Part shown: positions 5,782 to 47,400 of the stretch, in pieces
Numbering within the stretch: position 1 is the first letter of the stretch
Layout: each line of letters starts with the position of its first letter
Virus record (IMG/VR): IMGVR_UViG_3300036939_000082
Location: 96,001-160,000 of that record
Origin: a virus
Length of the DNA stretch: 64,000 nucleotides
Direction: 5' to 3' (one strand)
Made by a program: the position numbers and the translations under genes
Notes under the pieces: generated by a model
Told to the model about the DNA's origin: nothing
What the model saw: only the letters and a program-made list of their open reading frames with translations
Database searches by the model: none

Positions 5782-5950
5782 GACCATCCACCCCGACCTA
5801 AAGGTGCGGGGATTCCCAATTATCACTAATTGGATTTCTGCTTCGTAGCACCAGCCTTTCGAGACTTACACTCTTCGGGTCTTACGGTCGCTCCACAGAC
5901 TGAAACGGCTAGCCCAGCCGCCAAAATATTTTTTGCCGCATTAATGTCGC
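5760..5950 (-). ncRNA. predicted omegaRNA overlapping the tnpB 3' end; guide GAACTTAATCACCTTTGAGT
   Basis: established TnpB architecture (scaffold to the right end, guide from the flank); 5' boundary is a guess. Confidence 0.5.
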
Positions 5951-7094
5951 GGTCATGCTTCGTTCCACAATCAGGACATTTCCATTCCCGGATACTTAAG
6001 GGCATTTTTTCAACAATGTGACCGCAGTTTCCACAACGCTTAGAACTGGGAAACCAGCGGTCTATTTTTATCAAGTCGCGTCCGTACCAGTCACACTTGT
6101 AACTTAGCTGGCGAATTAATTCACCCCAGCTAGCGTCACTGATAGCAAAGGCTAACTTGTGGTTCTTTACCATGTTCTTGATGGCTAAATCTTCAACTAC
6201 AATCGTTTGGTTTTCACGAATGAGTTGAGTCGTTAGCTTGTGAAGAAAATCTTTGCGGACATCGACTATCTGCGCGTAGACTTTGGCGACTCGTTTCCGA
6301 GCCTTTTCCCGATTATTGCTGCCCTTCTGCTTCCTTGCTAAATCTTTTTGCTTTCTCTTCAGCTTTTTCCGAAGCTTTTTAAAAGTTCTTGGATTAGCGA
6401 TTTTGTCGCCGTCGCTAGTAGCAATCAGACTGGTGATTCCCATATCCAGTCCGATTGTTTTCTTTATTTTAGGAAACGGTTGAATTGTATAATCGTCTAC
6501 CAATATAGAGACAAACCAAAGACCCGCAGGCGTCAATTTTACCGTAATAGTAGACGGGATGCACCCTTGAGGAATTTGTTTGCTCCAGCGAATTGGGAGC
6601 GGTTCACTGCATTTAGCTAAAAAAACCTGTCCGTTCTTCCAACGGAAGGCAGACTTGGTAAATTCAGCGCTACCACCGTTATGCTTTTTTTTGAAATTAG
6701 GATACTTGGCTCGCCCTGCAAAAAAGTTGGCGAACGCTGCCTGAAGATGGCGAAGTCCCTGTTGGAGGGGAACGCAGCTAACTTCATTCAGAAAATCGAG
6801 TTCTTCTTCTTTCTTCCAGTGCGTTAGCATTGAAGAAGTTTCACCGTAACCCACTCTTTCTTGGCGCTCGTACCAAGATTCTGTTCGGTAAACCAAAGCC
6901 TTGTTGTACACCAACCGAGTACATCCTATTGTCCGTCGCAAGAGGTTTTCTTGCTCGATAGTTGGGTAAAATCGGTAGCGATAGGCTTTTTCCATCTTCA
7001 CAGTCTAACACGTCTTTTGTGATGTTCTTGGCTGTGTGTTGTATATTTTTGTAAAGCCGTTCTAGAAGGACGGGGTTTCCACCCACTTTTTTTG
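5780..7094 (-). mobile_element. IS200/IS605-family element, tnpB only (IS1341-like)
   Basis: right-end hairpin CCCCGACCTAAAGGTGCGGGG (5791-5811) ending in TCAA on minus; left end GGAAACCCCGTCCTTCTAGAACGGCTTT near 7053-7080; no tnpA. Confidence 0.85.
5826..7001 (-). CDS. tnpB: TnpB RNA-guided endonuclease
   Basis: AYRYRFYPT HTH, RuvC GLDMG / VVEDL / DRDINAA, zinc finger CGNC..CPDC; catalytic residues intact. Confidence 0.95.
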   Translation of the reverse strand: MKMEKAYRYRFYPTIEQENLLRRTIGCTRLVYNKALVYRTESWYERQERVGYGETSSMLTHWKKEEELDFLNEVSCVPLQQGLRHLQAAFANFFAGRAKYPNFKKKHNGGSAEFTKSAFRWKNGQVFLAKCSEPLPIRWSKQIPQGCIPSTITVKLTPAGLWFVSILVDDYTIQPFPKIKKTIGLDMGITSLIATSDGDKIANPRTFKKLRKKLKRKQKDLARKQKGSNNREKARKRVAKVYAQIVDVRKDFLHKLTTQLIRENQTIVVEDLAIKNMVKNHKLAFAISDASWGELIRQLSYKCDWYGRDLIKIDRWFPSSKRCGNCGHIVEKMPLSIREWKCPDCGTKHDRDINAAKNILAAGLAVSVCGATVRPEECKSRKAGATKQKSN

Positions 7095-15230: not shown

Positions 15231-16043
15231 ATGAATCCCAAAACAATGACCAAAAACCATATAGTCTCTTTCTCAAGTGGCAAGGCTTCTTGGCTTGCTG
15301 CCAAGATAGTTGCTGAAAAATTTGGCACCAACAATCTGTGGTTAGTATTTGCCGATACGACAATTGAAGACGAGGATAATTACAGATTCCTTGAAGAAGC
15401 AGCCACGAACGTCGGCGGTCAGTTAATCCGTCTTAAGGACGGTCGAAATCCCTGGGACATTTTTAATGAAAAGCGGTTCATTAACCATCAGCAATCTAAT
15501 TGCTCGATCGAGCTTAAGGTCAAACCTTGCGAAGCGTGGATCAACGCCAATTTTTTACCAGAAGACACGGTTTTATACTTTGGAATTGGTTTTGAGGAGT
15601 TGCATCGAATGAAGGTGATCGCCAAAAACTGGCATCCATTCCAAGTAGAAACTCCACTCTGCTGGGGAGATCGCTGGGCAGACCAACAAGAAATTAATCG
15701 CCAGCTACGACTAAACAATCTCAAACAGCCGAGACTTTATGACATGGGTTTTGCCCATGCTAATTGTGGTGGCTTTTGTACAAAAGCAGGTTTAAAACAC
15801 TACCGCAACCTCTTGAAACATTTACCAGAGGTTTACGCGCACCACGAACAAAAAGAGCAAGAGTTTTTAAAACTGATCGACAATGATTCAATCGGTCTTT
15901 TGCGACGCACAAAAAACGGAATTACCAAGGGTCTTACCCTTAAAGCGTTTAGGGAGGAAATAGAAGCAGCACCCGTCCAACTTTCTTTTGACTTTGAAGA
16001 ACTTGGTGGGTGTGGTTGCTTTATTGACACCCCTAAGTCATAG
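15231..16043 (+). CDS. PAPS-reductase-like / adenine nucleotide alpha-hydrolase phage protein
   Basis: VSFSSGKAS PP-loop, VFADT.IEDED.YRF, Cys motifs NCSIELK, NCGGFC, GCGC. Confidence 0.7.
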   Translation: MNPKTMTKNHIVSFSSGKASWLAAKIVAEKFGTNNLWLVFADTTIEDEDNYRFLEEAATNVGGQLIRLKDGRNPWDIFNEKRFINHQQSNCSIELKVKPCEAWINANFLPEDTVLYFGIGFEELHRMKVIAKNWHPFQVETPLCWGDRWADQQEINRQLRLNNLKQPRLYDMGFAHANCGGFCTKAGLKHYRNLLKHLPEVYAHHEQKEQEFLKLIDNDSIGLLRRTKNGITKGLTLKAFREEIEAAPVQLSFDFEELGGCGCFIDTPKS

Positions 16044-16786: not shown

Positions 16787-17341
16787 CTAAAAATTGTATA
16801 CATTATTGTCGTATTTTTTGAGTGCGTCGTAAGCCTGTTTTACCCATCGAGCATCAGCTAGTGCATTGTGAGCGTCTTCTGGTTTTGGCGGCAAATCTTT
16901 TCGTTTTAACCCTAGTTGATTCATCCATTGGATAACGTCATTGCAATACTGCGGATAACCCTCGGGAAGATCGATCATGCAACCAAATATCCAACAAAAT
17001 ACTACCCAATCATAACTAGCCCAACCTGCCCAAAATTCAATTTCATTTTCATCGGGAACAATAAAATCCAAAAGCTCTTTTTTTATTTTTTCTCGCGATT
17101 TCCAGGCTTTTGATTCATACCGCTGTCGAAGTGACACTTCCGTAGACTTGAACGAGCCTGGACGCGGTGGTAATTTATTCAATACATTTTCCACAACCCA
17201 CTCAGAGGCTGTACTTGCATCAAATTCTTCGCTGATTGCGTAATATTCACGTCCATCTTCTGCTACAATCCCAATCGAGATTAAGTCAATCGTTTTCTTT
17301 TTGCTTGATTCAATAAACTCGGTATCTAGGTGATATTCCAT
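16787..17341 (-). CDS. DEDD 3'-5' exonuclease, Rv2179c-like
   Basis: LDTEF..LISIGIVAEDGREYYA, WASYDWV, HNALADARW. Confidence 0.8.
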   Translation of the reverse strand: MEYHLDTEFIESSKKKTIDLISIGIVAEDGREYYAISEEFDASTASEWVVENVLNKLPPRPGSFKSTEVSLRQRYESKAWKSREKIKKELLDFIVPDENEIEFWAGWASYDWVVFCWIFGCMIDLPEGYPQYCNDVIQWMNQLGLKRKDLPPKPEDAHNALADARWVKQAYDALKKYDNNVYNF

Positions 17342-18386: not shown

Positions 18387-19130
18387 TTAACTGTTTTCAG
18401 CTAACCAGCAATCAAAACTATCCCACATCCACCGATCGTATTCCATTCCCAAACTTCGGGTTTTGATCGCCAGCCTTACCTCATTTTTTATGGCAGCGCG
18501 ATCGACTGCACTTAAAAGATGCCAATTCTCTTTTGTGGTATCAATTATCAAGCTTGACTTAGAGGTTATTCTTTCAAAGCAGTATCGGATTGCAAAAATC
18601 GTTAATTCACCAAGATACGTATTTTTTGCAATTGCTATATCTAATTGTTGTGAATCACAGGTTAATTGATAAAAATCATGCCAAATCGATGGAAATCCTA
18701 TTACTCCTTCGCGCTCAATCGCTTCTTTTAAATCTTTTACTATTAGTTGTCGTTCCTTAGCTGAAATCAATTCCCAATAATATTTAATACCATCAATACA
18801 GCGATTGTTGCTTTCTGTCTGGGCGATCGGTCTTGCTGCATAGCGAAGAGCGCATATCGCAATAATACCGATTTTTGCTGGCTCTTTAGATTGAAGCTCC
18901 GATATCAACTGGTTCTCTACAAGCAAAACAATATTTGGTTCGACAGGCGGATTCAGTGTTGGAGCCTGAAAGGCATCGCCAAATATCCCCGAGAACTCCC
19001 ACAGAGATAAATCTAAAAAACCCTCTTTGTCTGTTGCCAGCTTAATATTTTTCTGTCTTAAATATTTTTTCCCAGTTTCGGTGATCTTAACTTTAACTCG
19101 ATCGTTTAGGTTTAAGTGGGTGATACTCAT
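18387..19130 (-). CDS. phage hypothetical protein: N-terminal domain plus two tandem helical repeats
   Basis: LNDRVKVKITETG...LWEFSGIFG; repeats ALRYAAR...W / AIRYCFER...W. Confidence 0.65.
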   Translation of the reverse strand: MSITHLNLNDRVKVKITETGKKYLRQKNIKLATDKEGFLDLSLWEFSGIFGDAFQAPTLNPPVEPNIVLLVENQLISELQSKEPAKIGIIAICALRYAARPIAQTESNNRCIDGIKYYWELISAKERQLIVKDLKEAIEREGVIGFPSIWHDFYQLTCDSQQLDIAIAKNTYLGELTIFAIRYCFERITSKSSLIIDTTKENWHLLSAVDRAAIKNEVRLAIKTRSLGMEYDRWMWDSFDCWLAENS

Positions 19131-19158: not shown

Positions 19159-19167
19159 TGATATAAT
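19159..19167 (+). promoter_or_regulatory. extended -10 TGATATAAT for the 19257-19864 operon
   Basis: consensus match, divergent from 18387..19130. Confidence 0.55.
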
Positions 19168-19256
19168 ACCATATTACGTCGATCGCCCGAAAATTAATCT
19201 TTTAACTCGGGAGCGAACCGCATCTGTAGCCTTTAGATAGGAAGTATTTAAACCGT

Positions 19257-19538
19257 ATGCCAGAAGATAATACTGAATTTTCGCGAAAGCTTGAAGAGTT
19301 ATTTTCCTACCACCCGCCTAAAAACGAAGCTGAACAACAGCTTCATGCGGTAATTAATGAAGCTTCGATCGCCTACGCAAAAGCGTTAGCTGGCGTTATA
19401 AAAAATCCCGCAGAATTGACAACTGTTTTGCGGAAAGTCCAAGAAGCTAGAAATTTAGCCAACTTCGCTGTATCTTGCGAACGTGTGGGGATTTCTTACC
19501 GCGATTTGTTTTCGCCAACCACATCGAACCCACAATAA
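19257..19538 (+). CDS. small helical-hairpin protein, Acb2/Tad1-like nucleotide sponge candidate
   Basis: LFSYHPP...QLHAVINEA...AELTTVLRKVQEARNLANFAV fits the F-x-YH-x-P...E-x-s-l-a-x-t-K-l-x-EA-x-x-w-AN-x-a-i pattern. Confidence 0.55.
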   Translation: MPEDNTEFSRKLEELFSYHPPKNEAEQQLHAVINEASIAYAKALAGVIKNPAELTTVLRKVQEARNLANFAVSCERVGISYRDLFSPTTSNPQ

Positions 19539-19546
19539 GTATCGAA

Positions 19547-19864
19547 ATGTCTGATTTTCCAGTAGAAAAACAAGTTTTAACACATCATGTTGAGAATCCC
19601 TGCTCAGTTAACCGTGAATATCTGGAAAAACTGTTAAATGATTCAGTCAAAGAAGTACATATCTTTCACGGAAAACAAATGGTAGTTTCTTACTATTTGC
19701 CGTGTGGTTTTACTGTTACAGGGGAATCAAATATCATCGACCCTGAAAAATTCAACTTTGATATTGGCGAAAAACTGTGCTACGAAGTTGCAATTAAACA
19801 GCTTTGGCAATTGGAGACTTATCGAATGCAGTGCAATATGTATTCTGAGGCTGGCGTAGAATAG
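19547..19864 (+). CDS. N4 gp49/Sf6 gene 66 family protein (Acb4-like sponge candidate)
   Basis: LPCGFTVTGES..IDPEKFNFDIGEKLCYEVAIKQLWQLETY matches the Phage_gp49_66 consensus. Confidence 0.8.
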   Translation: MSDFPVEKQVLTHHVENPCSVNREYLEKLLNDSVKEVHIFHGKQMVVSYYLPCGFTVTGESNIIDPEKFNFDIGEKLCYEVAIKQLWQLETYRMQCNMYSEAGVE

Positions 19865-19873
19865 ATTATTGAG

Positions 19874-19918
19874 AAAGGAGAGGGGGCGATCATTTTAAAC
19901 GATCGCCCCCTCTCCTTT
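19874..19918. terminator. bidirectional terminator with an 18-bp stem
   Basis: aaaggagagggggcgatc / gatcgccccctctccttt between convergent genes. Confidence 0.85.
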
Positions 19919-19943: not shown

Positions 19944-20516
19944 TTACTTGTTTTCGTCCGGTGGTAGAGCATTTTGACTTGCTTTTTCGCCCAAACGACG
20001 AGCTACGTCAATTGCTCGTCGAAACCCTGACCGTCGCTTAATTTCTTCAGGTTCCACCTTGATGCCCGCCATTTCCAGTCTTTCCCATTCTCGTGACTTC
20101 ATGTAGGCAATTTCCTGTTGCGTGGGCATAACAATTGGTTCTTTTATTGGAGCGCTTGATCGAGAATTTACCTGCTTAGCAATCCGTTCGCATTCCAAAA
20201 AGTAACCTCGAATCAACTTACCTTGAGGTGTTCGAGCTATCATTCCAAACTCTTTTAGGCAATTGGCTGTCAAAAAGTATAAATGGCTAGAACGCCCACC
20301 AGAAGCCTTTTTAACCTGTTGGTTATTTTGATCCTGACTGCTGAGGTTGTTTGACATAAAGACGTAATCTACGCCTTCATCGAAATAAGACTCAAGTGTG
20401 TTTAACGCTTTTTGTTTTGTCGAATATCCTAGCCAGACCCATGCTTGTGAAAAATCCACGGGAAATTGTTCAGGAGAATCCAGCAAACTTTGTGCGAGTT
20501 CTATGTTAAAATCCAT
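19944..20516 (-). CDS. phage antirepressor-type DNA-binding protein (AntA/KilA-like)
   Basis: FPVDFSQAWVWLGYSTK...FDEGVDY...GGRS..Y.LT..C.KEFGM..RTPQGKLIRGYFLECER. Confidence 0.75.
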   Translation of the reverse strand: MDFNIELAQSLLDSPEQFPVDFSQAWVWLGYSTKQKALNTLESYFDEGVDYVFMSNNLSSQDQNNQQVKKASGGRSSHLYFLTANCLKEFGMIARTPQGKLIRGYFLECERIAKQVNSRSSAPIKEPIVMPTQQEIAYMKSREWERLEMAGIKVEPEEIKRRSGFRRAIDVARRLGEKASQNALPPDENK

Positions 20517-20601
20517 GAAGCTGACCTGTGATAGAGGTTAGTGTTCCTAGGGTTTCGGTGTTAGCTGCACCAGCCCGTGAGGAACATTTTTATTATATCT
20601 T
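20517..20601 (-). promoter_or_regulatory. promoter and structured leader of the antirepressor gene
   Basis: GATATAAT, then gttcct...ggtg-cagctaa-cacc...aggaac nested hairpin. Confidence 0.5.
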
Positions 20602-20909
20602 GGCAAGCTCGGTAATTACCAATCGTCTCGTTTCAAAAAAATGGCAGTCGAACGAACCACGCATGATTTGACCGACCGATCGCCAGCTACAGTTATGCGA
20701 TCGCGTTAGGCGGAACGAGCCGAAACAGAGGGTCGCCCGATGACCAGCGAAAAAATTGCAGAAAAGTCGGGATTTGGCGAAGATTGACGGGTGTTGCGGG
20801 TGATCGGGCAAAACCGATTGAATTAATTAATCTAATTTAAAGCACAAAAAAAGCCTTTGGAAGTGTTAATTCCAAAAGCTTTTTACATCGATCTAGTGAA
20901 TAATTTGCA

Positions 20910-21899: not shown

Positions 21900-23420
21900 T
21901 TATTCTTGGAAATATAATGGCGCTCCGTCCATCGCAGCCCGGGATGCTTTTTGTAGTTCAATTCCTAGGTATAAACAATGGGACGCTAGTATTCCGGGAC
22001 AAGCTTTCAGGATTTGAAAACCCAATTCCTGTGGGTCTTTTCCAGCAAAAAACTGAAGGGGTTCGTCGCCCGGGCTGGGTGAAATGTGTTCGACTTCAAT
22101 TGACTGGTTTTCGTCATTTACTGATATCAAAAAACTCCCAACAGGATCTGCAAACGATCGCGCTTCTTTTTTTGCAAGGCGATCGTACTGTTCGGCTATC
22201 AATTTATCTGCGTAGTCCCAACAGTCATCGTAAATATGAGCGCTTTGACTGATGGTGATTAGTGGTCCCATTTTTAAGTCGTAGCACGATCGCCCAGCAA
22301 TTTCATCTCGAATGTGCTGCTGCAAAGCCCGCAGTCCCATAGCATTAGCGGGCCACCCACTAAACATATCGTTGCTGCGGAAAATCGCTGTCATCGACAT
22401 TTCCTCATTGACGACTCGCACCCAAATTTGATTCAAGCAGGGACTGCCACCTAAATCGTGATCGGTCACATCCCACAGCGACATGACTGCACTAGCGGCG
22501 TCAATCTCTTCTATTAACTTTTTAATGACTTGTTCGATTTGGTCGCGTCCGCCAAACCAAGAACGGAGGCGCTGCCCGTAAGTGTATTTAACACCTTCGA
22601 CATAGGGCGCATCTTCTAAAATTTGCGATTTATATTTTTCGAGAAAAGCGCGATCGCACGACAGGTAGTTTGGTTCAGGAAAATAGAATTCTTCGGGTTC
22701 GTCAGTAACGATTGCCATCAAGTCTATTAGCTCTTGCCAGTGACCGCCATAACCTGTCGGTCGAACGGTTCCCGTGGTTTTAATGCGGTGGATGATTTTT
22801 ACCCAAGTTTCCGCGATCGTCTTGCCTTCAATCCGATGCCCGTACCGATCGCCCGGAAGAGCTTTTGGTACTTCTTGTTCTGGAACCGGATAACTCTTGG
22901 GTGCGCCCCAAGGTACAGTGTTTTTTGGCGCACTCCACGCCTCGTTAATGCAATCTTTAATTTTGCTGACAACAACCCACGATAGAGAATCTCGGAGCAG
23001 GTTTAAATCGGATTCAGGAATTTCAGCATCTATGTAACCCTTGCCTTGGAAACATAAACTGTTGCTATCTTTATTTTCTTTCCAGTCACAATTAATCACC
23101 CACGCTTCTTGTCCTAGATCGGTAACTCCGCGATCGCATCCATAGTGCAAGAACCACAGCAAAACTTCGATCGCCCCACTATTTCGATCTGCCTCGGTCG
23201 CGTTCAACAATACCAAATGCCTGATTTGCGGATTTGCCAACAAGTTTCTTACCAAGAAGCTAATACCGCGAGTGGGGGAATACAGTTGCCCGATCGCCCC
23301 GTAGTCTTGTAGACTTAATTTTTCTTTAATGACCTTGGCTGGCGTCCACCCGGTAATTACCGCAACATTTCCACTACCGCAACTGATTTGGTTTTGTTTG
23401 GCGATCGGATTGTATTTCAT
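21900..23420 (-). CDS. thyA: thymidylate synthase with MtrA-like N-terminal and DUF4346-like C-terminal domains
   Basis: YTYGQRLR, GGSPCL (catalytic Cys), FRSNDM, WPAN (Asn, dUMP type), SAHIYDD. Confidence 0.8.
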   Translation of the reverse strand: MKYNPIAKQNQISCGSGNVAVITGWTPAKVIKEKLSLQDYGAIGQLYSPTRGISFLVRNLLANPQIRHLVLLNATEADRNSGAIEVLLWFLHYGCDRGVTDLGQEAWVINCDWKENKDSNSLCFQGKGYIDAEIPESDLNLLRDSLSWVVVSKIKDCINEAWSAPKNTVPWGAPKSYPVPEQEVPKALPGDRYGHRIEGKTIAETWVKIIHRIKTTGTVRPTGYGGHWQELIDLMAIVTDEPEEFYFPEPNYLSCDRAFLEKYKSQILEDAPYVEGVKYTYGQRLRSWFGGRDQIEQVIKKLIEEIDAASAVMSLWDVTDHDLGGSPCLNQIWVRVVNEEMSMTAIFRSNDMFSGWPANAMGLRALQQHIRDEIAGRSCYDLKMGPLITISQSAHIYDDCWDYADKLIAEQYDRLAKKEARSFADPVGSFLISVNDENQSIEVEHISPSPGDEPLQFFAGKDPQELGFQILKACPGILASHCLYLGIELQKASRAAMDGAPLYFQE

Positions 23421-32663: not shown

Positions 32664-34589
32664 ATGCTCACAAGTAAAAATTTTTTAGGGCTTCCGGCAC
32701 TTCCCCAGGGACGTACTTTGTCAAGTGAAGAGATATCCAGTGCAGCGATCGCCCTTGCAGCCAAAGTGAAGGAGATTGTTGGGTGCGACGGCGTGTTGGT
32801 ATGCGAGTTTAACTTAATACTGCCAAATCAAGGGCCGAGGATTATTGCAGACGCTTCTAAAGACAGGTGGAATGAAATAATAAACAAGGAATTTGTTGGC
32901 AGGCATTTAAGAAGTTTGTCGCAGCAAATTTACGCAAGTGTTGATATGAGCAAAGACAATTCTCCATACCACGAAGAGCTTTCTAGCCTTGGCATTGGCT
33001 CTGTTCTCAGCGGTTGCATAGAGGTTAACAATCTAGAATGGGGTGCGCTGATCTGCTGGAATAAAAATAGCTGCGAATGGGAAGAAAGCAATTTATTGTT
33101 GATTTTACAGACCTGTCAGTATTTAGAATACGCGATCGCCAGATCGATGTTGAAATCCGTATTTGTAGATCGGGGTCATACAAAAACAATCAGTAAAATT
33201 AAGTCATTGCTCAATACTCCAAGCGATTGGAAAACATTCCAAGTGTTGGTCAAAGCCTCTCTTCAGTCTTTAAGACAGTTGTTTCAAGCCAGCAATTGCT
33301 CTATATTGGTAGGCAACGAATGTTTGTTTACGCTAACAGAAGATCGCTTGTCAGTAACGAGAACCCCTTACTATCAGGACATAGTAACTAAAGACTTGGT
33401 TGTAGTTCCAATCTTTATCAACAGCATTCATTGGGGTTTTATAGAGATAGAATCGCCTTATCTTCCGTGGGATGAAGTAGAAAGTACGTTTTTGAGGAAA
33501 GCCGGGTTTATAATTTGTAGCGCGATCGCCAACAAAGAGTCTGATTACCTTCAAGCTTATTATTTAGATAGGATCATAGAAACAGCACCTATCGTTCTTT
33601 ACAAGCTTGACAAGTTAGGGATTTGCACTTTTTGCTTAGGCAACAATCTAGTTGATTACCAAATTTTTCATAAAGAACTGCTAGGAAAGAATATTTTTGA
33701 AGAGAATGCAGGATATCCAAAAAACCAACAATTTTTCAAGGAAGCTTTTGAACTTAGCACGCATTCGGGATTTGTAAGTGCTAACGGAACAATTTTTCAC
33801 AACCATACCGTACTGCTAGAAAACGGAGAAATTATAGGTGTCGCGATCGATTACACAGAACAGTTTACATTTCAAAAAGATTTGGAAACTGTTGTATACT
33901 CATTGTCTCACGACTTACAGGAACCGTTGAGGGCAATTTCCAACAACCACAAGCTACTAGAAAATAGATTGACAGCAATTGGAGTTCAGGATGATGAAAT
34001 CAGCAACCGCTTAAAAAAAGGATCGTCAAGCGTCAAAAAGTTATCTGAATTGATTGAAGAACAGTTGCAGTTGAGCCGAATAAACTCGACCAAAAAACCA
34101 TTTGAACAAAATGACAGTAAATCTATTATTCAAGAAGCGATAGATAATTTATCGGATTTAATAACTAGGAAAAACGCGCAAATTGAATTTGTGACACCTT
34201 TTTTTCCGACTATTAGCTGCGATCGCTCTCAAATGGTTTCGCTGTTTCAAAATTTAATTGGCAATGCTATCAAATTCAACAATCTTACCGAGCCTCCCTC
34301 AGTATGGATTAGCTGCAATTTAGAAGGAACTAGATTTTGGAAATACGGAATTGCCGATAACGGTATCGGTATAGATCCGCAGTATCAAAAACAAATTTTT
34401 GAAATTTGGAAAAGACTCCACAGTGAATCTGATTTCCCCGGCACAGGAATGGGGTTAGCTATTTGTCGCAAAATAATTAATCGACACAAGGGTAATATTT
34501 GGGTCGAATCAGAAGGCGACGGTACTGGAAGTATATTTTACTTTACAATTCCAGCGTCAACAGAAGGATTGTTGTTTAGTGCAATTTAA
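32664..34589 (+). CDS. GAF-GAF-PAS sensor histidine kinase with Cph1/BphP-type kinase core
   Basis: SHDLQEPLR, FQNLIGNAIKF, DNGIGID, GTGMGLAIC; two GAF-like domains and one PAS-like domain. Confidence 0.9.
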   Translation: MLTSKNFLGLPALPQGRTLSSEEISSAAIALAAKVKEIVGCDGVLVCEFNLILPNQGPRIIADASKDRWNEIINKEFVGRHLRSLSQQIYASVDMSKDNSPYHEELSSLGIGSVLSGCIEVNNLEWGALICWNKNSCEWEESNLLLILQTCQYLEYAIARSMLKSVFVDRGHTKTISKIKSLLNTPSDWKTFQVLVKASLQSLRQLFQASNCSILVGNECLFTLTEDRLSVTRTPYYQDIVTKDLVVVPIFINSIHWGFIEIESPYLPWDEVESTFLRKAGFIICSAIANKESDYLQAYYLDRIIETAPIVLYKLDKLGICTFCLGNNLVDYQIFHKELLGKNIFEENAGYPKNQQFFKEAFELSTHSGFVSANGTIFHNHTVLLENGEIIGVAIDYTEQFTFQKDLETVVYSLSHDLQEPLRAISNNHKLLENRLTAIGVQDDEISNRLKKGSSSVKKLSELIEEQLQLSRINSTKKPFEQNDSKSIIQEAIDNLSDLITRKNAQIEFVTPFFPTISCDRSQMVSLFQNLIGNAIKFNNLTEPPSVWISCNLEGTRFWKYGIADNGIGIDPQYQKQIFEIWKRLHSESDFPGTGMGLAICRKIINRHKGNIWVESEGDGTGSIFYFTIPASTEGLLFSAI

Positions 34590-34591
34590 AA

Positions 34592-35008
34592 ATGATGGCT
34601 AAGCATAGTGTTTTACTGGTTGAAGATTCGCCTGATGACGCTGAAATAGCAAAGATTGCTTTTGAAAAGACACAGCTCGACATCAATTTAGAAGTAGTTA
34701 AAACCGGGAGATCTGCTATTCTGAGATTGCAAGAAGTAAATCAACCGGATTTGGTTATTCTCGACTGGAATTTACCGCTCGTGTCGGGAAAAGAAGTTTT
34801 GTTTTTTATCAAAAGAACAGCAAGAATTAAGAGAATTCCTGTAGTTGTTCTGACTACATCAAAGAACACCCAAGATATAACTGATGCTTACGACGGTCAC
34901 TGCAATGCCTACACAGTAAAGCCATTAGAGTTTGATGACACGATAGAGCTGTTAAGCTCGATTGCGAATTTTTATTGCAGGTACACATTATCACCCAAAG
35001 AGCTATGA
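34592..35008 (+). CDS. Rcp1-like single-domain response regulator
   Basis: LLVEDS..D, LVILDWNLP, IPVVVLTTS, Y.VKP. Confidence 0.9.
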   Translation: MMAKHSVLLVEDSPDDAEIAKIAFEKTQLDINLEVVKTGRSAILRLQEVNQPDLVILDWNLPLVSGKEVLFFIKRTARIKRIPVVVLTTSKNTQDITDAYDGHCNAYTVKPLEFDDTIELLSSIANFYCRYTLSPKEL

Positions 35009-35916
35009 CAAGCGAGCGCGAGCCAATACTAATAATAGATGATTCCCCGAACGACGGAGAATTTGCGGAAATAATACTCCGAGAATCAGGTTTTGACGGA
35101 GTTACTTCTACTACAAGACTGTCTGATGCGATAGAAATCTTAAAAGCTGACAATACAATCAAGCGAGTTGTATTGGACTTGGGGGGGTTGGTAAGAAAAT
35201 CAGACAACCCTCTTGCTGCGTTAAACGCACTGGAAGCAGAAGGTTTTCCCGATCTTCAAATAGTCGTACTAACAGGAAACAAAAACCCCGCTCTTGTTCG
35301 AGAAATAGAAAAAAGAGGGTATCAGTGTTTGACAAAAGAAAATGCACTAGATTTAGTCGAAAAATCTAGTGCTCTGCCAGATGCCATCGCCAAGCTTGAA
35401 TCAAGCAACCTTAATCTGCGACAAAATATTCACGTAAACGAGCTGTTTGCAAGAGTTAAGAGGCTAGAAACTCAGATTGATGGAATACTTTTGCTTTCGG
35501 GAACAAGTAACTTGCAATCGCTAGCCATCGATGTTAAAGCCATAGAGTCTCAACTCAATTTGTTGTACGAACTAAAAGACCGCATCGCAGAGTTTGAACG
35601 TAGCGATCAAATTCTGCGCGAAACTATTGGCGAATTTCGACTAGAAATAAAAGTTATAAATACCGAGAAAAATATTGAGCTTTTGAAGTTGCTGAGCAAA
35701 GCTATTTGGCTGTTAAAACTCAATCAAAAATTTTGCAATTTGTGCGTTTTTGTGTTTACGGAAATGTATAAGATGGTATTTGAAAATATAAAAATAATCT
35801 TGCTTGGATGTGCCACCACAATAGTTGTCACTTCTTCTTTTTGGCACAAGTTAACAGATAATTTACCTGAAATACAAGAAAAAATCAAAACTACAATAGA
35901 AAATCTTTTGCGTTAA
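35005..35916 (+). CDS. receiver domain + coiled coil + C-terminal hydrophobic segment
   Basis: ILIIDDS, VVLDL, VVLTG, CLTK; ATGA overlap with the upstream stop; IILLGCATTIVVTSSFW. Confidence 0.75.
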   Translation: MTSEREPILIIDDSPNDGEFAEIILRESGFDGVTSTTRLSDAIEILKADNTIKRVVLDLGGLVRKSDNPLAALNALEAEGFPDLQIVVLTGNKNPALVREIEKRGYQCLTKENALDLVEKSSALPDAIAKLESSNLNLRQNIHVNELFARVKRLETQIDGILLLSGTSNLQSLAIDVKAIESQLNLLYELKDRIAEFERSDQILRETIGEFRLEIKVINTEKNIELLKLLSKAIWLLKLNQKFCNLCVFVFTEMYKMVFENIKIILLGCATTIVVTSSFWHKLTDNLPEIQEKIKTTIENLLR

Positions 35917-38443: not shown

Positions 38444-41400
38444 TTACTGCTTGGCTTTTTCAACAATATCTCGCAACTGAGTGCGAATAACTCTTTGCGC
38501 CTGCGGTGATTCCAAATGCTTCATAATTTCGCCCAATAACTCTTCCGCTGCAAAACTTGGATTTGCTCCCTGAACTACAATGTCTCCAAAAACAAATTGA
38601 ACGTTAAATTCTGTTGTCTGCGAAGATGCAGCGGGCGGAAGGGGAATTGGGGTTGCGGGGACAGGCAATGCTCGAAGGCTGGAAACCTCTACCCGATCGC
38701 CCTGGTTGATCGATTCCAATAAAGGTAGGTTCGACCGCGTAGCAGCAGCATTGACAACAAACTCCCCAGGCGACGCCAGAATAGGTACGCGATCGCCCGT
38801 AGATGTTCCCATTCCCGATATCAAACCGCCAGTCGCATAACGCTGTACTGGCTGAACCTGCAGCGGGTGGCTCGGCAAAGGCTGACTCCGCAGCGAAGGA
38901 GCGAACAATCCGCCGACGAACGGAATATTAGCTAAAACCCCCATTGAATTAGTTACAACCCACTGAATCAGATTCCAAATTCCTTGGAAAACTCTAGTAA
39001 TAGCGCTTCCTACAACAACAAATGTTTCTTTTAGTACCCACCCGACCGCCACAACTCCAGAAATTATCGCCAAAAAAGGTGCGGCTGCAACTACCGCAGC
39101 AGAAATACCCGCAATCACAGCCCCAATACCGCCCGTGACGGCTGGAACGACAGCCGCAGCAAAAACTCCTCCTATTGTCGCCAGCGCGCTCCCGACTCCC
39201 GATACAGCAGAGCCGATCGCCCCAACAGCGCCTGTTATGCCAGCAAGCACCGCGCCAAAATTTGCTGCCAAAGTTAAAGTAACGACTGTTCCGGCAATCG
39301 CAGCGCCGACAGTTGCTACTGCTCGAACAATTTTGGAGACAGCGTTAAATACAAATCCTAGCGTTTTAATTACACCGATCAGTACGAATGAAATTGTTTT
39401 AATGATTTTAATCAAACTAAAAGTTAAAGTTTTAACTGGAATCAGCAATACATTGATAATTGATGATGCCAAACCTGATATGTTTCCATCCACTCCGCTA
39501 AAGATGCTGGCGATCGTCCCAAAAATTTGAGCGAATGGCTCGACGATGGTATTTCCCAATTCGACGAGCGCGCTCCACACGCTATCAATTTCCTGAAAGA
39601 GCGTTCCAGTTACTTGGGCGATCGAATCCCAAATTCCCCCAAAAACGCCTGCAACGATACTCCCGATAAAGCTGAAGACTTTTCCCAATACCCATCCAAC
39701 TGCCACAATTCCCAGAAGCAAAGGAATAAAAGGAAGGAAGGGGGAGATTGCTGCGGTTGCTGAGGCAAGGATTGCACTCAAACCGCTGAGAATCACTGGA
39801 ACTAAGACTCCGCTAAATATTCCAGCGACACCGGTGGCAATAGTTGAAAACTCAATTAACGCGAGACTCAACCCAGCAACAAACGCTCCAGCACTTACAA
39901 ACAGTCCCCCTATTTGCGTTAAAGAAGAAAATACCGCTAAAGCAGCGCCTATCCTCAACAGCGATTCAACCAATACGCCAAATACAGTAAAAGCAAATTT
40001 GCCCGCTTGGATTAACGATCCAATGATTCCTGCAACTGTTCCCACGATTGCAGAAGCAACACTGGAAATAGACTCAAGAATCCACGAGCTAAAATTGCCC
40101 AGACTATTTTTTGCATTTTCCACAACCTCTTGAATGCCGCCAATGTTGTCTTTGTAAGATCGGTACAGCAAAAATAGGGCAGAGCTAATTCCCAATATCA
40201 AAGGTAAAAACGGCAGCAGCGGTACAATCATTGATTTGTAGGCAAGTTTGGCAGCACCCGCGACAAATCCGTAAGATGCGGCGATCGCCCCGTTAGCGCC
40301 GCCCACAATTCCTGCTTTAGTCAAAGCAGATGCGGCGATCGCGCTGTCTGCAGCTACGGAACTTGCTGCGTTCGTTGCGTAAAAAGCTCGCATCCCCGGC
40401 ATCGCCGTCCGAATATCTAAGAATGAAGTCACCAAGTCATTCATCATAAATATCGGTGTCGCTAGTTGCGGGGCGATATTCGACAATACGGAACCGATCG
40501 ACAGAGAGAGACTTCTAACGCTTTCACCGACCTGCTTCCTAGCAGCGGTATCTTGCTCGACTGCTAACGTTACTCGCCGATGAGCAGATTCTAGATTCTT
40601 CAAACCTTGAGTATAGACTTTGCTATCGATCGCCCCTTGTTTGTAGAGATCGTTCAACCGCACCTGCCTCGCTGTAATTCTGTGAAGGTTGGTTTGGGAC
40701 TCTACCGGATTCCGACTAACGCTCGACATTGCCAACTTCGCATCAAACTTCAACCCGCCAAGCGCTTCGCCAGCTTCGGCAATTTTAGACGGAGATAGCG
40801 CGGTGAGCGATCGATCTAAAAATCTGTAAATTGCATTGCCTTCAATCTTTGCCGACAGCGCCAAGTCCGACAGCCGACTTTGAATAGTCTCTGTAGTGTT
40901 GACCCAGTTTTTGCGAATCCAGTAAGTCGGTCCCGGCGAGGCTTCCGACAAATCGCCCTGCAATTGCTGTCCGGTTTGTTTCGCTTTCCTGCCGATGCCC
41001 GCGATCGCCCCGACAATTTTGCCTCCGGTTTTTTCCCAAATTGCGCCCACTGTTTTTAAAGGCTGTTCGAGGAACTGGGCGATCGCTGCACCTAGTTCTC
41101 CTAACTCCGACATTAGTCGCCCTTTCAATTCTGTGGCGTTGCTACCGAGAACGCCGATACTAGCAATTATGTCGGGAATCCCTTTGAAAACGCTAAAGAT
41201 GTCGAACGGCAGGGAAACATCTAGACCTAACTTGAACAGAGCAACGCCTACATCTTTTAGTCCAACCAATATTTCAGCTACAACGCCTGCCATCTTCAAT
41301 CCAAAAGTACCGATATCTTTTGCAAAACCGAGGAAACTGCCAGCAATCTCGCTCGCGGTCAGCGCAACGCCCGCTAATTGTGCCTTGAAGCTTGCAAAAC

Positions 41401-44400
41401 CTTCTTGTACCCCCGCGAAGGCTTCCTTGGATTTTCGAGAGAATGACGACAGAAGCGCAACAAACCTCAATACAGATTTGTATAAACCTAGAACGGCGGT
41501 CATTACCCGAGCCGGCCAGTCCAGCACAAAACGAAATGCCCATACAAACTTTAGTGCGAAGGCAGACAGCTCAATTCCTATTTGGGTAAAAACCCACAAA
41601 ACCTTGAACAAAGGTGGGAGTACAGTTGTAGAAAAATTAACTATTCCAGCTAGTATTTTGCCGACAACTTGCCCGAAGTCTTTACCCGCAGAAGCTGCGC
41701 GATCGGTGTCGCGACCAGCAGAAGTCAATCCCTGAGAAAACTGCCCCAAGTTTTTTAGAATCCATCCCAAAAATTCACCCAAATGTCTGACAGCAGATGA
41801 AACGCCTGTTAGTTTTGATGTCATTTCATCGGAGGCGATCGCCCCGCTGTTTACCGCTCTAGCAATATCGAACAAAGTTTGACCAAAATCAATAGCTGAC
41901 TTACTCGCAGAAATCACTATACCGATCAAATCTGTCAGGGGCTGCTGAACCTCAGAAAATAAACTGGTTGCAAAATTAGAGATGAATCCATTTAGGGATT
42001 TAAACCCATTTTTTATTACATCTAATAAATTAAATTTCGCAATAATTTGAGTGGCTACCCATGTCGCAGGCGCTATCAACTGTAGCAGCGAGTTTGTTAT
42101 CTTGGTAACGGCTTCCTTCCACGCTTCAGGAATTTTGACTGTTGGGCTGTGATTCAATAAACCGATCAATGTCTGACCCAGCCATTTGGCAAAGTCTGCG
42201 ATCGGAGTCAATATGGTTTGAAATTCTGCTGCAAACTTCTCCCATTTCCTTTTAATCCAGTCTGCTGCTTTCCCAAAGGCGATCGGGACTTCTTGTAGGG
42301 CTTGCTCAAATAGTTGAGGAACTCTAGAGCTGAAATCTTGCAACCCCGTCAAAACAGTTAAGAACAAATCCTTTCTGTTCAAGAATTCCGTGAGGCGCTG
42401 CCATTGAGCCTGGACGGAAGCGATCGCGCCATTTATACTGGGAATAATTTTAGCGATTTGCTCTTTCACTTTTTCAAACAAAGAGGGAATAGATTCGCCA
42501 AAATTTTTCATTTTTGCAGAAATACCTGTAAATAAATCCGCAGAACTCAAGAAGGTAATAAAATTCGGCCATTCCGACTTAATCCAAGATATTGTTTCGC
42601 CAAACTTTGTACCAATCAACGTTAGGAAGTCCAAAGCTCCTGGAATCATTGGAGTCTCAGACAACCAAACAGATAATTTATTCCATTTCTCTTGAATAAA
42701 TGCAACCGTATTGCTAAGCCTTTCCCCCAGCAAAGCAATTTTGACAAACAGATTTTGAATTGCCGGGATCTCGAATTTCAATCCAACTTCGATCGCCCAC
42801 GCAGACAGCCTACCGCTTAAGTCTTTTAACCTATCAAAAAATCCTTGAAATATTTGCCCGGTAGCCAGCGACTTCTGAACTTCCGACCATTTTTCTCTTA
42901 ACAAACCCGAAAACAATGTAAATTCCAATCCGACCTTAAGCAATCTATCAAACAGCCAACTGAATAAATTAGTTCCGCTCATCCAGCCTACAAACTTACT
43001 CCACGCAGCCTCCAAAATATTTACGGTTGAGAGAAAAGCTTGAGAGATATTTTCTGGCTTAAAAGCTTCGCGCAGCCGATCGCCCGCAACTCGAAATAGA
43101 TCGCTCTGTCGCAACCAGTCTCCTAGCTGTTGCCACGATGATTGAACTTTGACGATCGCCCGATCGAAGTATTCCTCAACGTTCAACATCTTCATGATTT
43201 GGCGGAACTTCGACTCGACTGCAGAAATTGCACCGCCAAACCCTTTCTGAACTGCCGCTGCAATATCTGGGGGCAGTGCGACGAGAATAGTGTTGAAAAA
43301 GCCGCGCCAGAAGTCTCCGACATATTTGAGGGGCGCTGTTAGAGCTTCTGTGATTCCCGGCACCAATCTTTTAAGGCGATCGGGAATTGACTCGGAAGAT
43401 CCGTCTATGGAGCCAAATAGTTGGCTGATGCCGGTGATCGCATCCTTGAACGTAAAATTCTTGATAGACTCCTGAACCTGAAAAATTCCATTTTTAATCG
43501 ACTGCACCGCGAGATCGACCTGTTCCGCGAAAAGTTGTTTGATGGCTGGAAAATGGTGTTTAACGCTGTCGATCGCAAACGCCACAGCATCAGTCACTGA
43601 CTTGACTGCGTTAATCAATATGGATGCAACCATTTCTCCTGCTTGCTCTCCCGACTTGAAGGCTAAAAAGAAGTTATTGATAGATTCAGTTGCGCGTTTG
43701 AGGGTAAAGCCTAACGGTCGGAAAACTTGCTCGATCGCCTCACCGATTCCCCGCAACACTTGGAACGAACCTCGGGCGATCACCTTCAACCCATCGTCCG
43801 CGCTGCGCCCAAAATTCTCAAACGCAAATCCCAGCCCTCGAAAGCCTTCTTGAATTAAAGTAAAATCTCCTTTGAGCGCGGGCAGTATACCTAGGGCGAT
43901 CGTTTTGAAAGCACCCGCCGCTTCCACCAAGCCCCACAGCGCTCCAGCCAAAATCTTGCCCGCGCCAATCCCAATCTTAATTAGCCCGGTCAAAATCGTG
44001 CGGATACCCAAGAAGTTTGCAGCGATTACCGCAGCCGTAAAAGCGACCCCCCCCAGCACTAGAAGCAGCGGAGAAATGCCCGACAGGGAAAATAGTCCGA
44101 AGGCGATCGCCGACAAGCTCATGCTGTTGAATCCCGACAGTACCCCTCCAACTCCATACTTGAAGTTACCGAAGAAGTCGCGAGCCGCATCCCCTAGTTC
44201 CACAAAATTGAGAGTTAGCAAGGCTTTTGCCGATCGTCCAACAAAGTCAACCAAATCGTTGCCCAATTGACTCAGACTGCTTGTAACATACTCCATCCCC
44301 GGTGCAAACAGAATACTGGCACTGCCTACTCCGCGATCTGCAAGATACTGATAGCGGTCGCCCACGGCTAACGCGAAAAAACTTGCAGCTCTAATCGCCT

Positions 44401-47400
44401 GACTTTTGAGATCGTTTGTTGGCGGTGACAGCAATATCTCGCTAGCGGAATTTGTTAAGTTACCGCGCAGGATCGATCCGGTTTCCTTGGCGTTTGCTTG
44501 AATATCGCCCATCCACCCGCCGATCGCCCCAACAGTTTTTTCCCAGTAGTGGCGAATCCAGTAAGTCGGACCGGGAGATCCTTCGGAAACAGCCTTTTGT
44601 AATTCGTACCCAGAATCTTCTGCTGGCTGCACCAAGGAATTAATGTTTGCAGTAATAGCTGAAGCGGTATTGACCCATGCCGCATTTGTACTGGCAGCGC
44701 CTAAATCGCCCAATCCGATCGCCCCGGTCACACCGACACCAACCGTGTTGGCAGTTTTCGGGGCTGCACCGCTAAATATTCCCGCACCTGCTTTGGCAGC
44801 CAAGTACGTTTTTTTCTCGATAAAGTCTTGTTTTCTTGAAGAGATAAAATCTTTAGTTTTGTCAATTCCAGATTTAACTGTACCTTGAATAGAGTTTGCA
44901 ATTTTTGGCGCATTTTCTTTTATACCTTGAATCAAAAAACTCAAGAATTTTTGTGCGGAACTTGTTTCTGCAACTTCTAACGGCAAAAGGTTTTCACGAG
45001 ATCGATCGGCGATCGCCTGTTTAACGGGCAATTGCATAGGTGGGTGTAAAGTGTTTATTGCCATTAGAATTTCGCCTAATACACTATTTATTGCTTCCAG
45101 TTGTACAATTTGTTGCGACTTCCCAGGCTGTCCCGGTGCAAGTTTAATTGCATCATTCAAAGAATCTTGTCCAACCAATGCTTTATCTAGCAATGCTCGA
45201 TCGGGAATCTTCGCTCCCACGGATGCAGCCGTAGCACTCAACCTAGCATTAGAGAACATCCCTTCTTGATTTTTGGCAGATGCTGCCAATTGCTCTTCTA
45301 TATATTTTTGACCGGCTTGATTGATTTTGTAGACATCTTCTGTTTGACCCAGCAGTCCGCCAAGACCTTTTTTCTGTACAGTAATCTTCGTTGCCAAACC
45401 TGCGTATTCTGCTTGAGAGGATAATGATTTTGAATTCAATCCTTGGAGTATCGTGTCTGCAATCTTAAGTTCTTCTTTCTGCATCTGAGTTTGAACTTGC
45501 GTTCTAAACGCAGATTCTTTGTCAAATACATTTCTAATTTCTATAAAATCGGGAATGTGTACCTTATCTAACAGTGGAATTCCCTCTAACGGATTCCATC
45601 CTCTTTTTTGTTGATCTAAATCATTGGAAATATCTTTTTGTCTTGATTGTTCGGTTCTTTTTTCCCATCCTTCACCTTTTAAACCAAGCCCTATTTGATA
45701 TTTGCGCTGCGCTGACACAGAACTTTTTCCTAAATCGGGAGCTTGAGCGGTTGCCAATGACCTTGTTTCTTCTTGAGGCTTGTCAAGTAGAGCAAGCAAA
45801 GATTTAGTATAAAAAGCAATGCGATCCAATGTAGAAACTATTGATACAAAAAGTCCTCTATGTAGGTACAATTCAGACTCGATCGCCCGAGAACCTTGGG
45901 TGAAAAAACCTTCCATTCCGACATAAGTGTTTGTCAGTGAATTTTTGGTATTAACAACAGCTTCTTTACCTTGACTAACAACTAAGTTTGCCTGTTTTGC
46001 TTTACCACTAAAGAAATTGCCAACTGGCGAAAATATACCCGTCAATATGCCAGCAACTTCTTTGGCGGGAGTTAGCAGCCAATTCATTGCCCCTGATATT
46101 CTTTCCACCGCCCCTTCCCATGCAGTTGGGATTTTCTCTGTGGGGTTGTGATTTAAAGCGTCAATAAGACCCAATGCTATTTCTAAAGCAGTATCGACCA
46201 ACGGCATATCGAGAAACCAGTGTACAAACCCCGTCCAAGCTTTTTGAATTGCTTGAACAGAACCGGAGAATAGATTACTAATTGCGGTTGTCAGCTTAAC
46301 CGTTTTTGTCCTAATATCCGCAAAGTCAGTAGTGAAAGCAAGCGTTAGAACAGATAGAGCTGTTGTTATGCCTCCGATTCCCAGTATCAACGTGCCAAGT
46401 TCCCCTAACATTCCTAACCCAAAAATCGGCTTAAGTAAATTGCCAAATTTAGAAATGCTTTTGCCCGCTCCGCTTTGTTGCAGTGTTCCCAACATTGCTG
46501 GAGCGGTTACTGTTGGAGATCCTCTTTGAACAAAGCCGCCCATACTCCGGGCAGAGTGACTTAGCTGCGGTGGCGCTTCCCTTGAGAATCTTCTTTGAAG
46601 CATCGCTTCTATTCTTGTCGCTAGATTCTTATTTCTTTCTTTGTTCGTGGCAAACCTCCAAAGTGTTTGCGCCTGTGCGGTCTGCTGCTGCCTGATTTGA
46701 GCGTGGAGAAGTTGAGCTTGAGTGTCTAATTTCTTACCAACGGAATCAAGAGGCGACAGTACCGAAGTAAGTGCAGCGACGACTTTGCCGAAGCCTATCT
46801 GTAAATTGTCTTGCCACGACAATTTCTGTTTTTCACCCGTAGCTCCTAATGCTATTGAATTGATAAATTCTGTTTTGCGTCGCTGCTTGGCATCATCGGC
46901 TTGGAGCGATTCGGACATTTCTTCTCCTACCCCCTTCGCTGGAGCGACCATCCCTTGTATCGAGCCTGTTATGCTTGCAACAGCTCCCTCCCATGCTGTC
47001 GGTATCTTCTCCGTAGGGTTGTGGTTGAGAGCGTTTATTAAGCCCTGCGCTACGTTCAGTGCTGGCTGTACGATCGCCATCAATTTCCCGCCAAACGCAT
47101 CAATAAATCTTTGCCACGCAGCGGTAACAAAGGCGATCGGCGCTGACAGGGCTTGAGAAAGCATATCGCCAGCAGATCGCGCCAAACTTCCAATACCTAA
47201 AAAGTTGTTTTTAAAGGCTAAATACAAGCCCCCCGCAGCTAGCCCGATCGCCGCAACCCCTGCAATCAAAGGAGCTAGCGGTAGCGCTGCTGCTCCCACC
47301 GCTCCGGCGATCGCTCCGCCAATGCCAGTTAGTCCGGCGATAGTTGCTCCCGACACCGAGACTATCGCTCCAAAACTAGCTCCCAACGCAGCCAGTACCG

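Follow-up and report, generated by a model that had tools for sequence, protein, structure and literature searches.

A putative counter-defense operon pairing Acb2-like and Acb4-family signal sponges in a cyanobacterial provirus

Results

We analyzed a 64,000-nucleotide (nt) stretch of viral DNA (referred to throughout as the window) that spans positions 96,001-160,000 of the provirus record IMGVR_UViG_3300036939_000082 in IMG/VR (188,942 bp; CheckV completeness 98%). Our subject is a compact unit within it, made up of two small adjacent open reading frames (ORFs), here called ORF A and ORF B, whose products are related to the phage immune-signal sponges Acb2 and Acb4, respectively. At minimum, most of the window is phage DNA, encoding baseplate-like and spike proteins, a fiber with an S74 chaperone, an M23/chitinase lysin and a tape measure protein. 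The octamer GCGATCGC, known as highly iterated palindrome 1 (HIP1), is a hallmark of cyanobacterial genomes. It occurs 43 times in the window against 1.2 occurrences expected, and for this reason we take the host signature to be cyanobacterial, in line with the first-pass annotation, which had placed the unit in a cyanobacterial element. HIP1 sites are unevenly spread, with 30 in the 32-64 kb half of the window and 13 in the 1-32 kb half.

ORF A and ORF B form a plus-strand island flanked by minus-strand genes. Because the upstream neighbor (18387-19130; 247 amino acids) is divergent and the downstream neighbor (19944-20516; an Ant-like protein) is convergent, the unit needs start and stop signals of its own. 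Its components are as follows.

19159-19167, plus strand: putative extended -10 element, TGATATAAT, read directly from the sequence, within the 126-nt divergent intergenic region
19257-19538, plus strand: ORF A, 93 amino acids, putative Acb2-like helical hairpin (PF24729 superfamily, divergent cyanophage clade)
19547-19864, plus strand: ORF B, 105 amino acids, Acb4-family (PF13876, N4 gp49/Sf6 gp66) sponge homologue
19874-19918, no strand assigned: GC-rich hairpin with an 18-bp stem and a 9-nt loop, identified by folding (z = -7.3)

The two coding regions are those that the first-pass annotation had described, namely a 93-residue ORF carrying the motif F-S-Y-H-P-P...K..EA...AN and, 8 bp later, a 105-residue protein of the gp49/gp66 family. 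The motif residues of ORF A occur at that spacing (F16-S17-Y18-H19-P20-P21, then K60, E63-A64 and A68-N69), and 8 nt separate its stop codon from the start of ORF B.

ORF B is clearly a member of the Acb4 family by hidden Markov model (HMM), profile-to-PDB and predicted-fold comparisons. It matched PF13876 with 46.9 bits (E = 4e-12; gathering cut-off 27), and a six-frame search of the whole record returned the same match. As the first-pass annotation had indicated, PF13876 is the Acb4 family: its member SPO1 gp1.3 is Acb4, a sponge against cyclic-oligonucleotide-based anti-phage signaling systems (CBASS), which forms a tetramer with four bound molecules of 3'3'-cyclic GMP-AMP (cGAMP; PDB 9E4W), and 3'3'-cGAMP was bound by SPO1 gp1.3 and by eight diverse PF13876 homologues, 9/9 of the proteins tested (Chang et al., bioRxiv 10.1101/2024.12.30.630793). 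A profile built from 81 ORF B homologues (A4) found a single match in the PDB, again 9E4W (9e4w_A; E = 6.5e-6); a search of PDB sequences with ORF B alone gave only noise. The AlphaFold2 (AF2) model of ORF B (predicted local distance difference test score, pLDDT, 87) shows a helix, three strands and a long helix (H-E-E-E-H), the order seen in Acb4, so that the protein shares with SPO1 gp1.3 a three-strand core flanked by helices. When this model was searched with Foldseek, the top ten matches were all 9E4W chains (probability 1.0; E = 1e-4 to 4e-4; template modeling score 0.53-0.68), and the next unrelated entry appeared only at E = 0.04. In addition, ORF B carries an N-terminal extension of ~20 amino acids that SPO1 Acb4 lacks; it is disordered in the model and is present also in the closest homologue. 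The nearest named homologues are annotated as 'Gp49 family protein' in Nostoc and Aulosira, and the ORF B clade also includes Pasteurellaceae prophage proteins.

ORF A was placed through its family. From 47 close homologues we aligned 33 (54-82% identity), and PF24729, the Acb2/Tad1 hairpin, matched 26 of these (best E = 6e-7; two above the 27-bit cut-off). An exhaustive family-profile search recovered 335 relatives at E <= 1e-3, and PF24729 was matched by eight of nine sampled remoter ones (one of them from contig L011) with 25-92 bits; for reference, the validated Acb2 of JBD67 scored 59.6 bits. Searching the PDB with a broadened profile (A2) returned as the best match Acb2 homologue 43 (Acb2_43, 9PTQ; E = 0.007), followed by Tad1 (E = 0.9), whose chains were matched through the hairpin only; a narrow profile (A1) and a single-sequence search of PDB sequences each gave only noise. 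The nearest neighbors of ORF A in a protein language model were likewise PF24729 clusters. These matches bear out the earlier placement of ORF A in the Acb2/Tad1 family. Among PHROG families the only match was PHROG 1454, whose function is not annotated, and a related-locus search of genome contigs gave no confirmed relatives of ORF A. A tblastn search of the annotated phage collection gave only weak matches (E >= 8e-3), all to unnamed proteins, from actinophages, Brevibacillus phages and one cyanophage (Arthronema virus TR020).

In several respects ORF A resembles characterized Acb2 proteins (PaMx33 and JBD67 Acb2; T4 Vs.4, 7UQ2/8H2J; PF24729). It is ~90 amino acids long with a two-helix hairpin after a short N-terminal segment, its second helix ends in an E-A-x-x-x-A-N/C motif, and its gene occupies an accessory slot of a phage. 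The signature of ORF A comprises F16, Y18, H19, P20, P21, H30, N34, R65 and N69 together with a C-terminal G-I-S-Y-R-D-L-F; H19, H30 and N69 are conserved in its clade, and the C-terminal motif is clade-specific, being absent from shorter relatives. Relative to Acb2, the conserved His19 and His30 and the Y-R-D-L-F tail are additions. As the lysine found on helix 1 of Acb2 is replaced by N34, sequence comparison suggests that ORF A is best filed as a divergent subclade of the PF24729 superfamily and not as a canonical Acb2.

The AF2 model of ORF A (pLDDT 86) consists of helices at residues 24-47 and 51-77, which form the helical hairpin foreseen in the first-pass annotation, and an N-terminal helix at residues 6-16, with no beta-strand. 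We considered Tad1 as an alternative identity and rejected it, since ORF A has 93 amino acids (Tad1, ~125), its model is all-helical and the N-terminal beta-sheet domain of Tad1 is missing; the architecture is of the hairpin-only Acb2 type. A Foldseek search with the model gave no match at E <= 0.001 and ranked T4 Vs.4 18th. In a second-look structural alignment, T4 Vs.4 with cGAMP (7UQ2) came first (Z = 6.2), and in a Foldseek-independent search of 48,161 chains 9PTQ came second (Z = 6.7; root-mean-square deviation 1.8 A over 61/69 residues), but these scores of Z 6-7 overlap those of generic helical hairpins (field Z 5.8-7.2). Structural similarity to known sponges was thus obtained for ORF B, whereas for ORF A the Acb2 structures ranked first or second without being separated from unrelated hairpins. 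We regard the predicted structure of ORF A as consistent with Acb2 but not decisive.

We next compared the residues that would line the ORF A pocket. For cyclic-dinucleotide binding, PaMx33 Acb2 depends on two essential residues: Y11, which provides stacking, and K26, which forms salt bridges. T4 Vs.4 (from NC_000866) was included in the MAFFT alignment of the ORF A family, in which ORF A Y18 aligned with T4 Y8. MAFFT misaligned JBD67 Acb2 owing to its long inter-helix insert, and hhalign returned no match between profile A2 and JBD67 Acb2 alone; the JBD67 tyrosine was therefore placed through Pfam model coordinates, where ORF A Y18 corresponds to JBD67 Y11 at model position 2. Of 120 family sequences, 104 have tyrosine here, and the base-stacking tyrosine of Acb2 (PaMx33 Y11, T4 Y8) thus has its counterpart in Y18. 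The phosphate-bridging lysine (PaMx33 K26, T4 K23) differs: ORF A has asparagine at this position (N34), as do all the close homologues that make up the cyanophage clade and 91/120 of the wider set of sequences. What the clade carries instead is Arg65 on the second helix (arginine in 105/120 sequences).

Positions 34 and 65 co-vary. Where position 34 was non-basic, position 65 was basic in 105 sequences versus 1, and where position 34 was basic, position 65 was basic in 3 versus 13 (Fisher p = 7e-14, not corrected for phylogeny). The hairpin turns at residues 48-50, and since positions 34 and 65 are equidistant from this turn they should face each other. The pattern could represent a charge swap that preserves a phosphate contact in the pocket. 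PF24729 relatives mostly have a basic residue at just one of these two positions, 34 on helix 1 or 65 on helix 2, and seldom at both or neither; such a rule may be of general use for sub-typing Acb2-like sponges.

The tandem pair is also present on a metagenomic contig (L019), with ~80% protein identity for both genes and an intergenic gap that measures 11 nt or 29 nt according to the stop codon chosen for the upstream gene. On L004, L015 and L016/17, a homologue of ORF A and one of Acb4 lie 0.4-1.4 kb apart in divergent orientation. Altogether, Acb2-like and Acb4 genes occur within 1.5 kb of each other in five lineages; on L003, L005, L006, L007/8 and L009/10, homologues of ORF A were found with no Acb4 within ~4 kb. 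The closest relative of the provirus, L003, is a 188,553-bp record collinear with the window at 75-84% DNA identity. In L003, 35 bp stand in place of window positions 19530-19878, which cover exactly ORF B; this is a clean indel of ~350 bp that runs from the ORF A stop codon to the hairpin. Because L003 has ORF A and the hairpin without ORF B, we interpret ORF B as swappable cargo gained or lost in a slot between the two, and the hairpin is the downstream border of this slot. Two further segments, 20021-20643 (most of the Ant-like gene) and 18552-18915 (part of the 247-residue upstream gene), had no DNA match in L003. With ORF B, most of the Ant-like gene and part of the upstream gene all unmatched, this 2.5-kb stretch is a hotspot of gene flux.

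These arrangements also bear on whether the two genes belong together at all. Two small, tightly spaced genes with putative signals of their own and the behavior of an accessory indel would also fit an unrelated juxtaposition, or a two-gene module of another kind (a toxin with its antitoxin, for instance, or a host-directed moron), in which the family resemblances had no functional meaning. The two families are, however, found together repeatedly and in several different arrangements, and the characterized members of both are all sponges. The toxin-antitoxin version was set aside, as scans of Pfam and PHROG gave no toxin or antitoxin family for either protein. We consider a chance pairing or another kind of module highly improbable.

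Our preferred explanation, which we hold to be probable, is that the unit is a counter-defense operon of a ~189-kb cyanobacterial provirus that encodes two unrelated small signal-sequestering sponges. Both proteins would form homo-oligomers that sequester nucleotide second messengers of the host's abortive-infection immunity. ORF B, with its alpha-beta-beta-beta-alpha core, would assemble into a tetramer burying cyclic dinucleotides (CBASS signals of the 3'3'-cGAMP type) at protomer interfaces. ORF A would form a hexamer with a pocket in which Y18 stacks on a base and phosphate binding has passed from the basic residue of helix 1 (lysine in Acb2, replaced by Asn34 here) to one at the facing site on helix 2 (Arg65). 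It would take up a nucleotide signal that carries phosphate; a cyclic oligonucleotide from CBASS is the most likely candidate, ahead of an isomer of cyclic ADP-ribose (cADPR) from Thoeris. The two genes are probably co-transcribed from the extended -10 promoter, with the transcript ending at the hairpin, and they may be translationally coupled, given the 8-nt gap and the lack of a Shine-Dalgarno sequence.

A number of our observations weigh against this explanation, beginning with the transcription signals. The extended -10 element TGATATAAT is perfect, but a sigma-70 consensus scan called no promoter at 19159-19167, which we attribute to the poor -35 element (the best candidate is TTGATT, with a spacer of 15 nt). 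The hairpin arms (19874-19891 and 19901-19918) form 18 perfect pairs, and a 76-nt stretch containing them folds with -39.2 kcal/mol (z = -7.3), an energy equaled by 0/200 shuffled sequences; even so, the consensus scan did not call it as a canonical intrinsic terminator, as it has no U-run apart from the UUU that closes the stem. The promoter and the 18-bp-stem terminator of the first-pass annotation therefore each stand in part: the -10 element and the stem are there, and the consensus scans recognize neither. We find it plausible, though unproven, that the element is the promoter of the unit, in which case the leader would be ~80-90 nt long. The hairpin lies between convergent genes and is kept in L003 directly 3' of the ORF A homologue, and it contains partial HIP1-like GCGATC cores. 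It is likely a bidirectional terminator or a transcript-stabilizing stem. Both labels, promoter and terminator, are to be read as our inference from the DNA itself.

Divergence in the binding sites adds to these points. We aligned SPO1 Acb4 (from NC_011421) to ORF B and its 81 homologues; identity between SPO1 Acb4 and ORF B is ~20%. Of ten positions that contact the ligand in SPO1 Acb4, six are kept or conservatively replaced (SPO1/ORF B: K36/K43, F48/F55, V56/I63, F62/F69, N63/N70, I66/I73) and four differ, with the guanine-reading E49 replaced by T56 and the phosphate contacts Y57, T70 and K81 by I64, L77 and Q88. T56, I64 and Q88 are common among the 81 homologues, and L77 is rare. For ORF A, Asn34 and the overlap with generic hairpins count in the same direction, as do the empty hhalign comparison and the fact that ORF A alone had no meaningful match in Pfam. 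This last result fits the earlier judgement that the ORF A call was the weaker of the two; it also means that, of the HMM matches then suggested, PF13876 was obtained for ORF B and the Acb2/Tad1 family (PF24729) at the level of the ORF A family but not for ORF A itself. Finally, ORF A has A52 and R59 where the cyclic-trinucleotide pocket of PaMx33 Acb2 has R67 and T74, as traced through T4 D61 and T68. T4 Vs.4 likewise lacks this pocket and does not bind cyclic triadenylate (cA3), and the pocket is variable within the Acb2 family.

Published assays of Acb2 relatives sharpen the question for ORF A. Homologues spanning 4,204 sequences have been tested, and most of the active ones inhibit CBASS, while ten act against type I Thoeris (Hadary et al., bioRxiv 10.1101/2025.08.24.671296). 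Proteins of the F-x-Y-H type with arginine at the lysine position mostly inhibit Escherichia albertii CBASS, as does homologue no. 14, which has asparagine there and A-R-M-L-A-N; homologue no. 17, with the histidine, the asparagine and A-R-M-Q-A-N, inhibited 0/7 systems (two CBASS, three Thoeris and two Pycsar) (Table S2 in bioRxiv 10.1101/2025.08.24.671296). Compared by eye from that table, both share with ORF A the F-x-Y-H start, asparagine at the lysine position and A-R-M-x-A-N; each is shorter than ORF A or is missing its cyanophage C-terminal motif. No. 17 also has the equivalent of His30, and by the same by-eye comparison its signature is the nearest to that of ORF A, so that its inactivity is a further point against a sponge role.

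It could accordingly be that only ORF B is a sponge, and that ORF A is a hairpin of the PF24729 fold which has lost the canonical nucleotide pocket and taken on another role; it could then be a protein-binding inhibitor of a defense effector, or an accessory or regulatory partner of the cargo in the slot. The loss of the canonical lysine (PaMx33 K26, T4 K23) to Asn34, the 0/7 result for a homologue with the same His/Asn/Arg signature and a structure that resembles Acb2 no better than unrelated helical hairpins all speak for this, as does the fact that half of the examined lineages retain ORF A but have no ORF B. Against it, Tyr18 and the covariation of basic residues at positions 34 and 65 suggest that a stacking-plus-phosphate pocket is under selection, a homologue of the Asn/Arg type (no. 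14) did inhibit CBASS, and the negative result for no. 17 may stem from untested ligands or poor expression. All characterized PF24729 proteins, moreover, are sponges. On balance we think it distinctly unlikely that ORF A has abandoned nucleotide binding.

Granted the preferred explanation of two sponges, it remains to ask which signals they would take up. Acb2_43 is informative here because it sequesters 3'cADPR and inhibits type I Thoeris by means of an added beta-strand that forms the pocket (bioRxiv 10.1101/2025.08.24.671296). It is both the best profile match of ORF A in the PDB and its best low-rmsd structural match; it differs in that N- and C-terminal beta-strands build the pocket and the lysine is kept, where ORF A has an N-terminal helix and Asn34. 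Our best guess, by analogy with the tested homologues, is that the ORF A clade binds CBASS signals.

Both proteins might then serve against CBASS-type cyclic oligonucleotides, giving broader anti-CBASS coverage, and not the joint coverage of CBASS and Thoeris that the first-pass annotation had proposed; they could differ in the dinucleotides they take up, or one could bind dinucleotides and the other trinucleotides. This would agree with the predominance of CBASS inhibition among tested Acb2 homologues, only ten of which inhibit type I Thoeris, with the helical N terminus and lack of beta-strands in the ORF A model compared with the Thoeris-active Acb2_43, and with the binding of 3'3'-cGAMP by all nine Acb4 proteins tested. 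On the other hand, a division into dinucleotides and trinucleotides sits poorly with the non-conserved trinucleotide-pocket residues (A52 and R59 in place of PaMx33 R67 and T74), and the known fusions of Acb4 to the anti-Thoeris sponges Tad2 and Sequestin suggest complementary, not overlapping, coverage. We put forward a purely anti-CBASS pair as a tentative possibility, somewhat against the balance of expectation.

Those fusions are also the closest precedents for the unit as a whole. Acb4-Tad2 of Pasteurella phage Pm86 blocks CBASS and Thoeris, and Sequestin-Acb4 of phage YH6 is a second fused double sponge. Like these, the provirus unit joins Acb4 with a second, unrelated sponge candidate in one locus that could address more than one signal; unlike them, the partner is an Acb2-like hairpin, and the two proteins are encoded by separate cistrons 8 nt apart. 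No published cassette of Acb2 plus Acb4 turned up in the literature we searched, although no search was aimed at that pairing. Both families and the multi-sponge principle have already been described, and the unit opens no new category.

Several other genes of the window are also of note. Two kb upstream of the cassette, at 16787-17341 on the minus strand, is an Rv2179c-like 3'-5' exoribonuclease gene (PF16473, phrog_2259). Nearby on the plus strand (15231-16043) lies a gene for a protein resembling 3'-phosphoadenosine-5'-phosphosulfate (PAPS) reductase (phrog_424), and at 21900-23420 on the minus strand lies one for a 506-residue protein that resembles thymidylate synthase and carries a fused pterin-binding DUF4346 domain; the last two may form a DNA base-modification (anti-restriction) module near the sponge cassette. 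A TnpB/OrfB_IS605 gene with a Cas12f-like TNB domain (5826-7001, minus strand) is inserted among the baseplate and spike genes. Between the lysin and tape measure regions (32664-35916, plus strand) lie genes for what looks to be a phage-borne two-component pair, a GAF-HisKA-HATPase histidine kinase and a protein with a receiver domain. A single minus-strand ORF at 38444-57409 encodes 6,321 amino acids with a PhageMin_Tail (tape-measure) domain near the N terminus. Tail length scales at ~1.5 A per tape-measure residue, and if this holds here the tail would approach 0.9 um and be exceptionally long. A further ORF (59814-63998, plus strand) continues past the window end; it exceeds 1,395 amino acids, and its C-terminal half contains helicase domains of the SNF2, DEAD and ResIII types.

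Discussion

To our knowledge, signal sponges have been characterized in phages of Proteobacteria, Firmicutes and Bacteroidetes, and none in a cyanophage. Cyanobacteria, the phylum of the presumed host here, are absent from the host list of the Acb4 paper (bioRxiv 10.1101/2024.12.30.630793). The locus described above is a credible extension of a known form of counter-defense to cyanophages, with the pocket of the first protein altered.

How far that alteration goes is open to a bolder interpretation. The His19/His30/Asn34/Arg65 clade with its Y-R-D-L-F tail could be a re-wired Acb2-type sponge for a signal outside the characterized range of the family, such as a cyclic oligoadenylate of cyanobacterial type III CRISPR (clustered regularly interspaced short palindromic repeats) systems or an undescribed product of CBASS or Thoeris, and its partner could be an Acb4 of the Gram-negative type re-tuned to exclude cyclic di-AMP (c-di-AMP). 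In contrast to the Gram-negative hosts examined to date, cyanobacteria themselves employ c-di-AMP in their physiology (PMC5897029, PMC5986932). We regard this combined proposal as unlikely.

As an unfused operon of an Acb2-like and an Acb4 gene with natural relatives that lack ORF B, the locus offers a clean system for asking whether paired sponges are additive or complementary. The Acb2 subclade, in which a charge has apparently moved across the hairpin, likewise provides a simple and mutable hypothesis of how a sponge pocket can be re-wired. It has been proposed that sponges avoid the housekeeping signals of their hosts, and Acb4 homologues of Gram-negative phages do bind c-di-AMP. Since cyanobacteria rely on c-di-AMP, the cassette would allow a direct test of whether phage sponges avoid the signals on which their own hosts depend.

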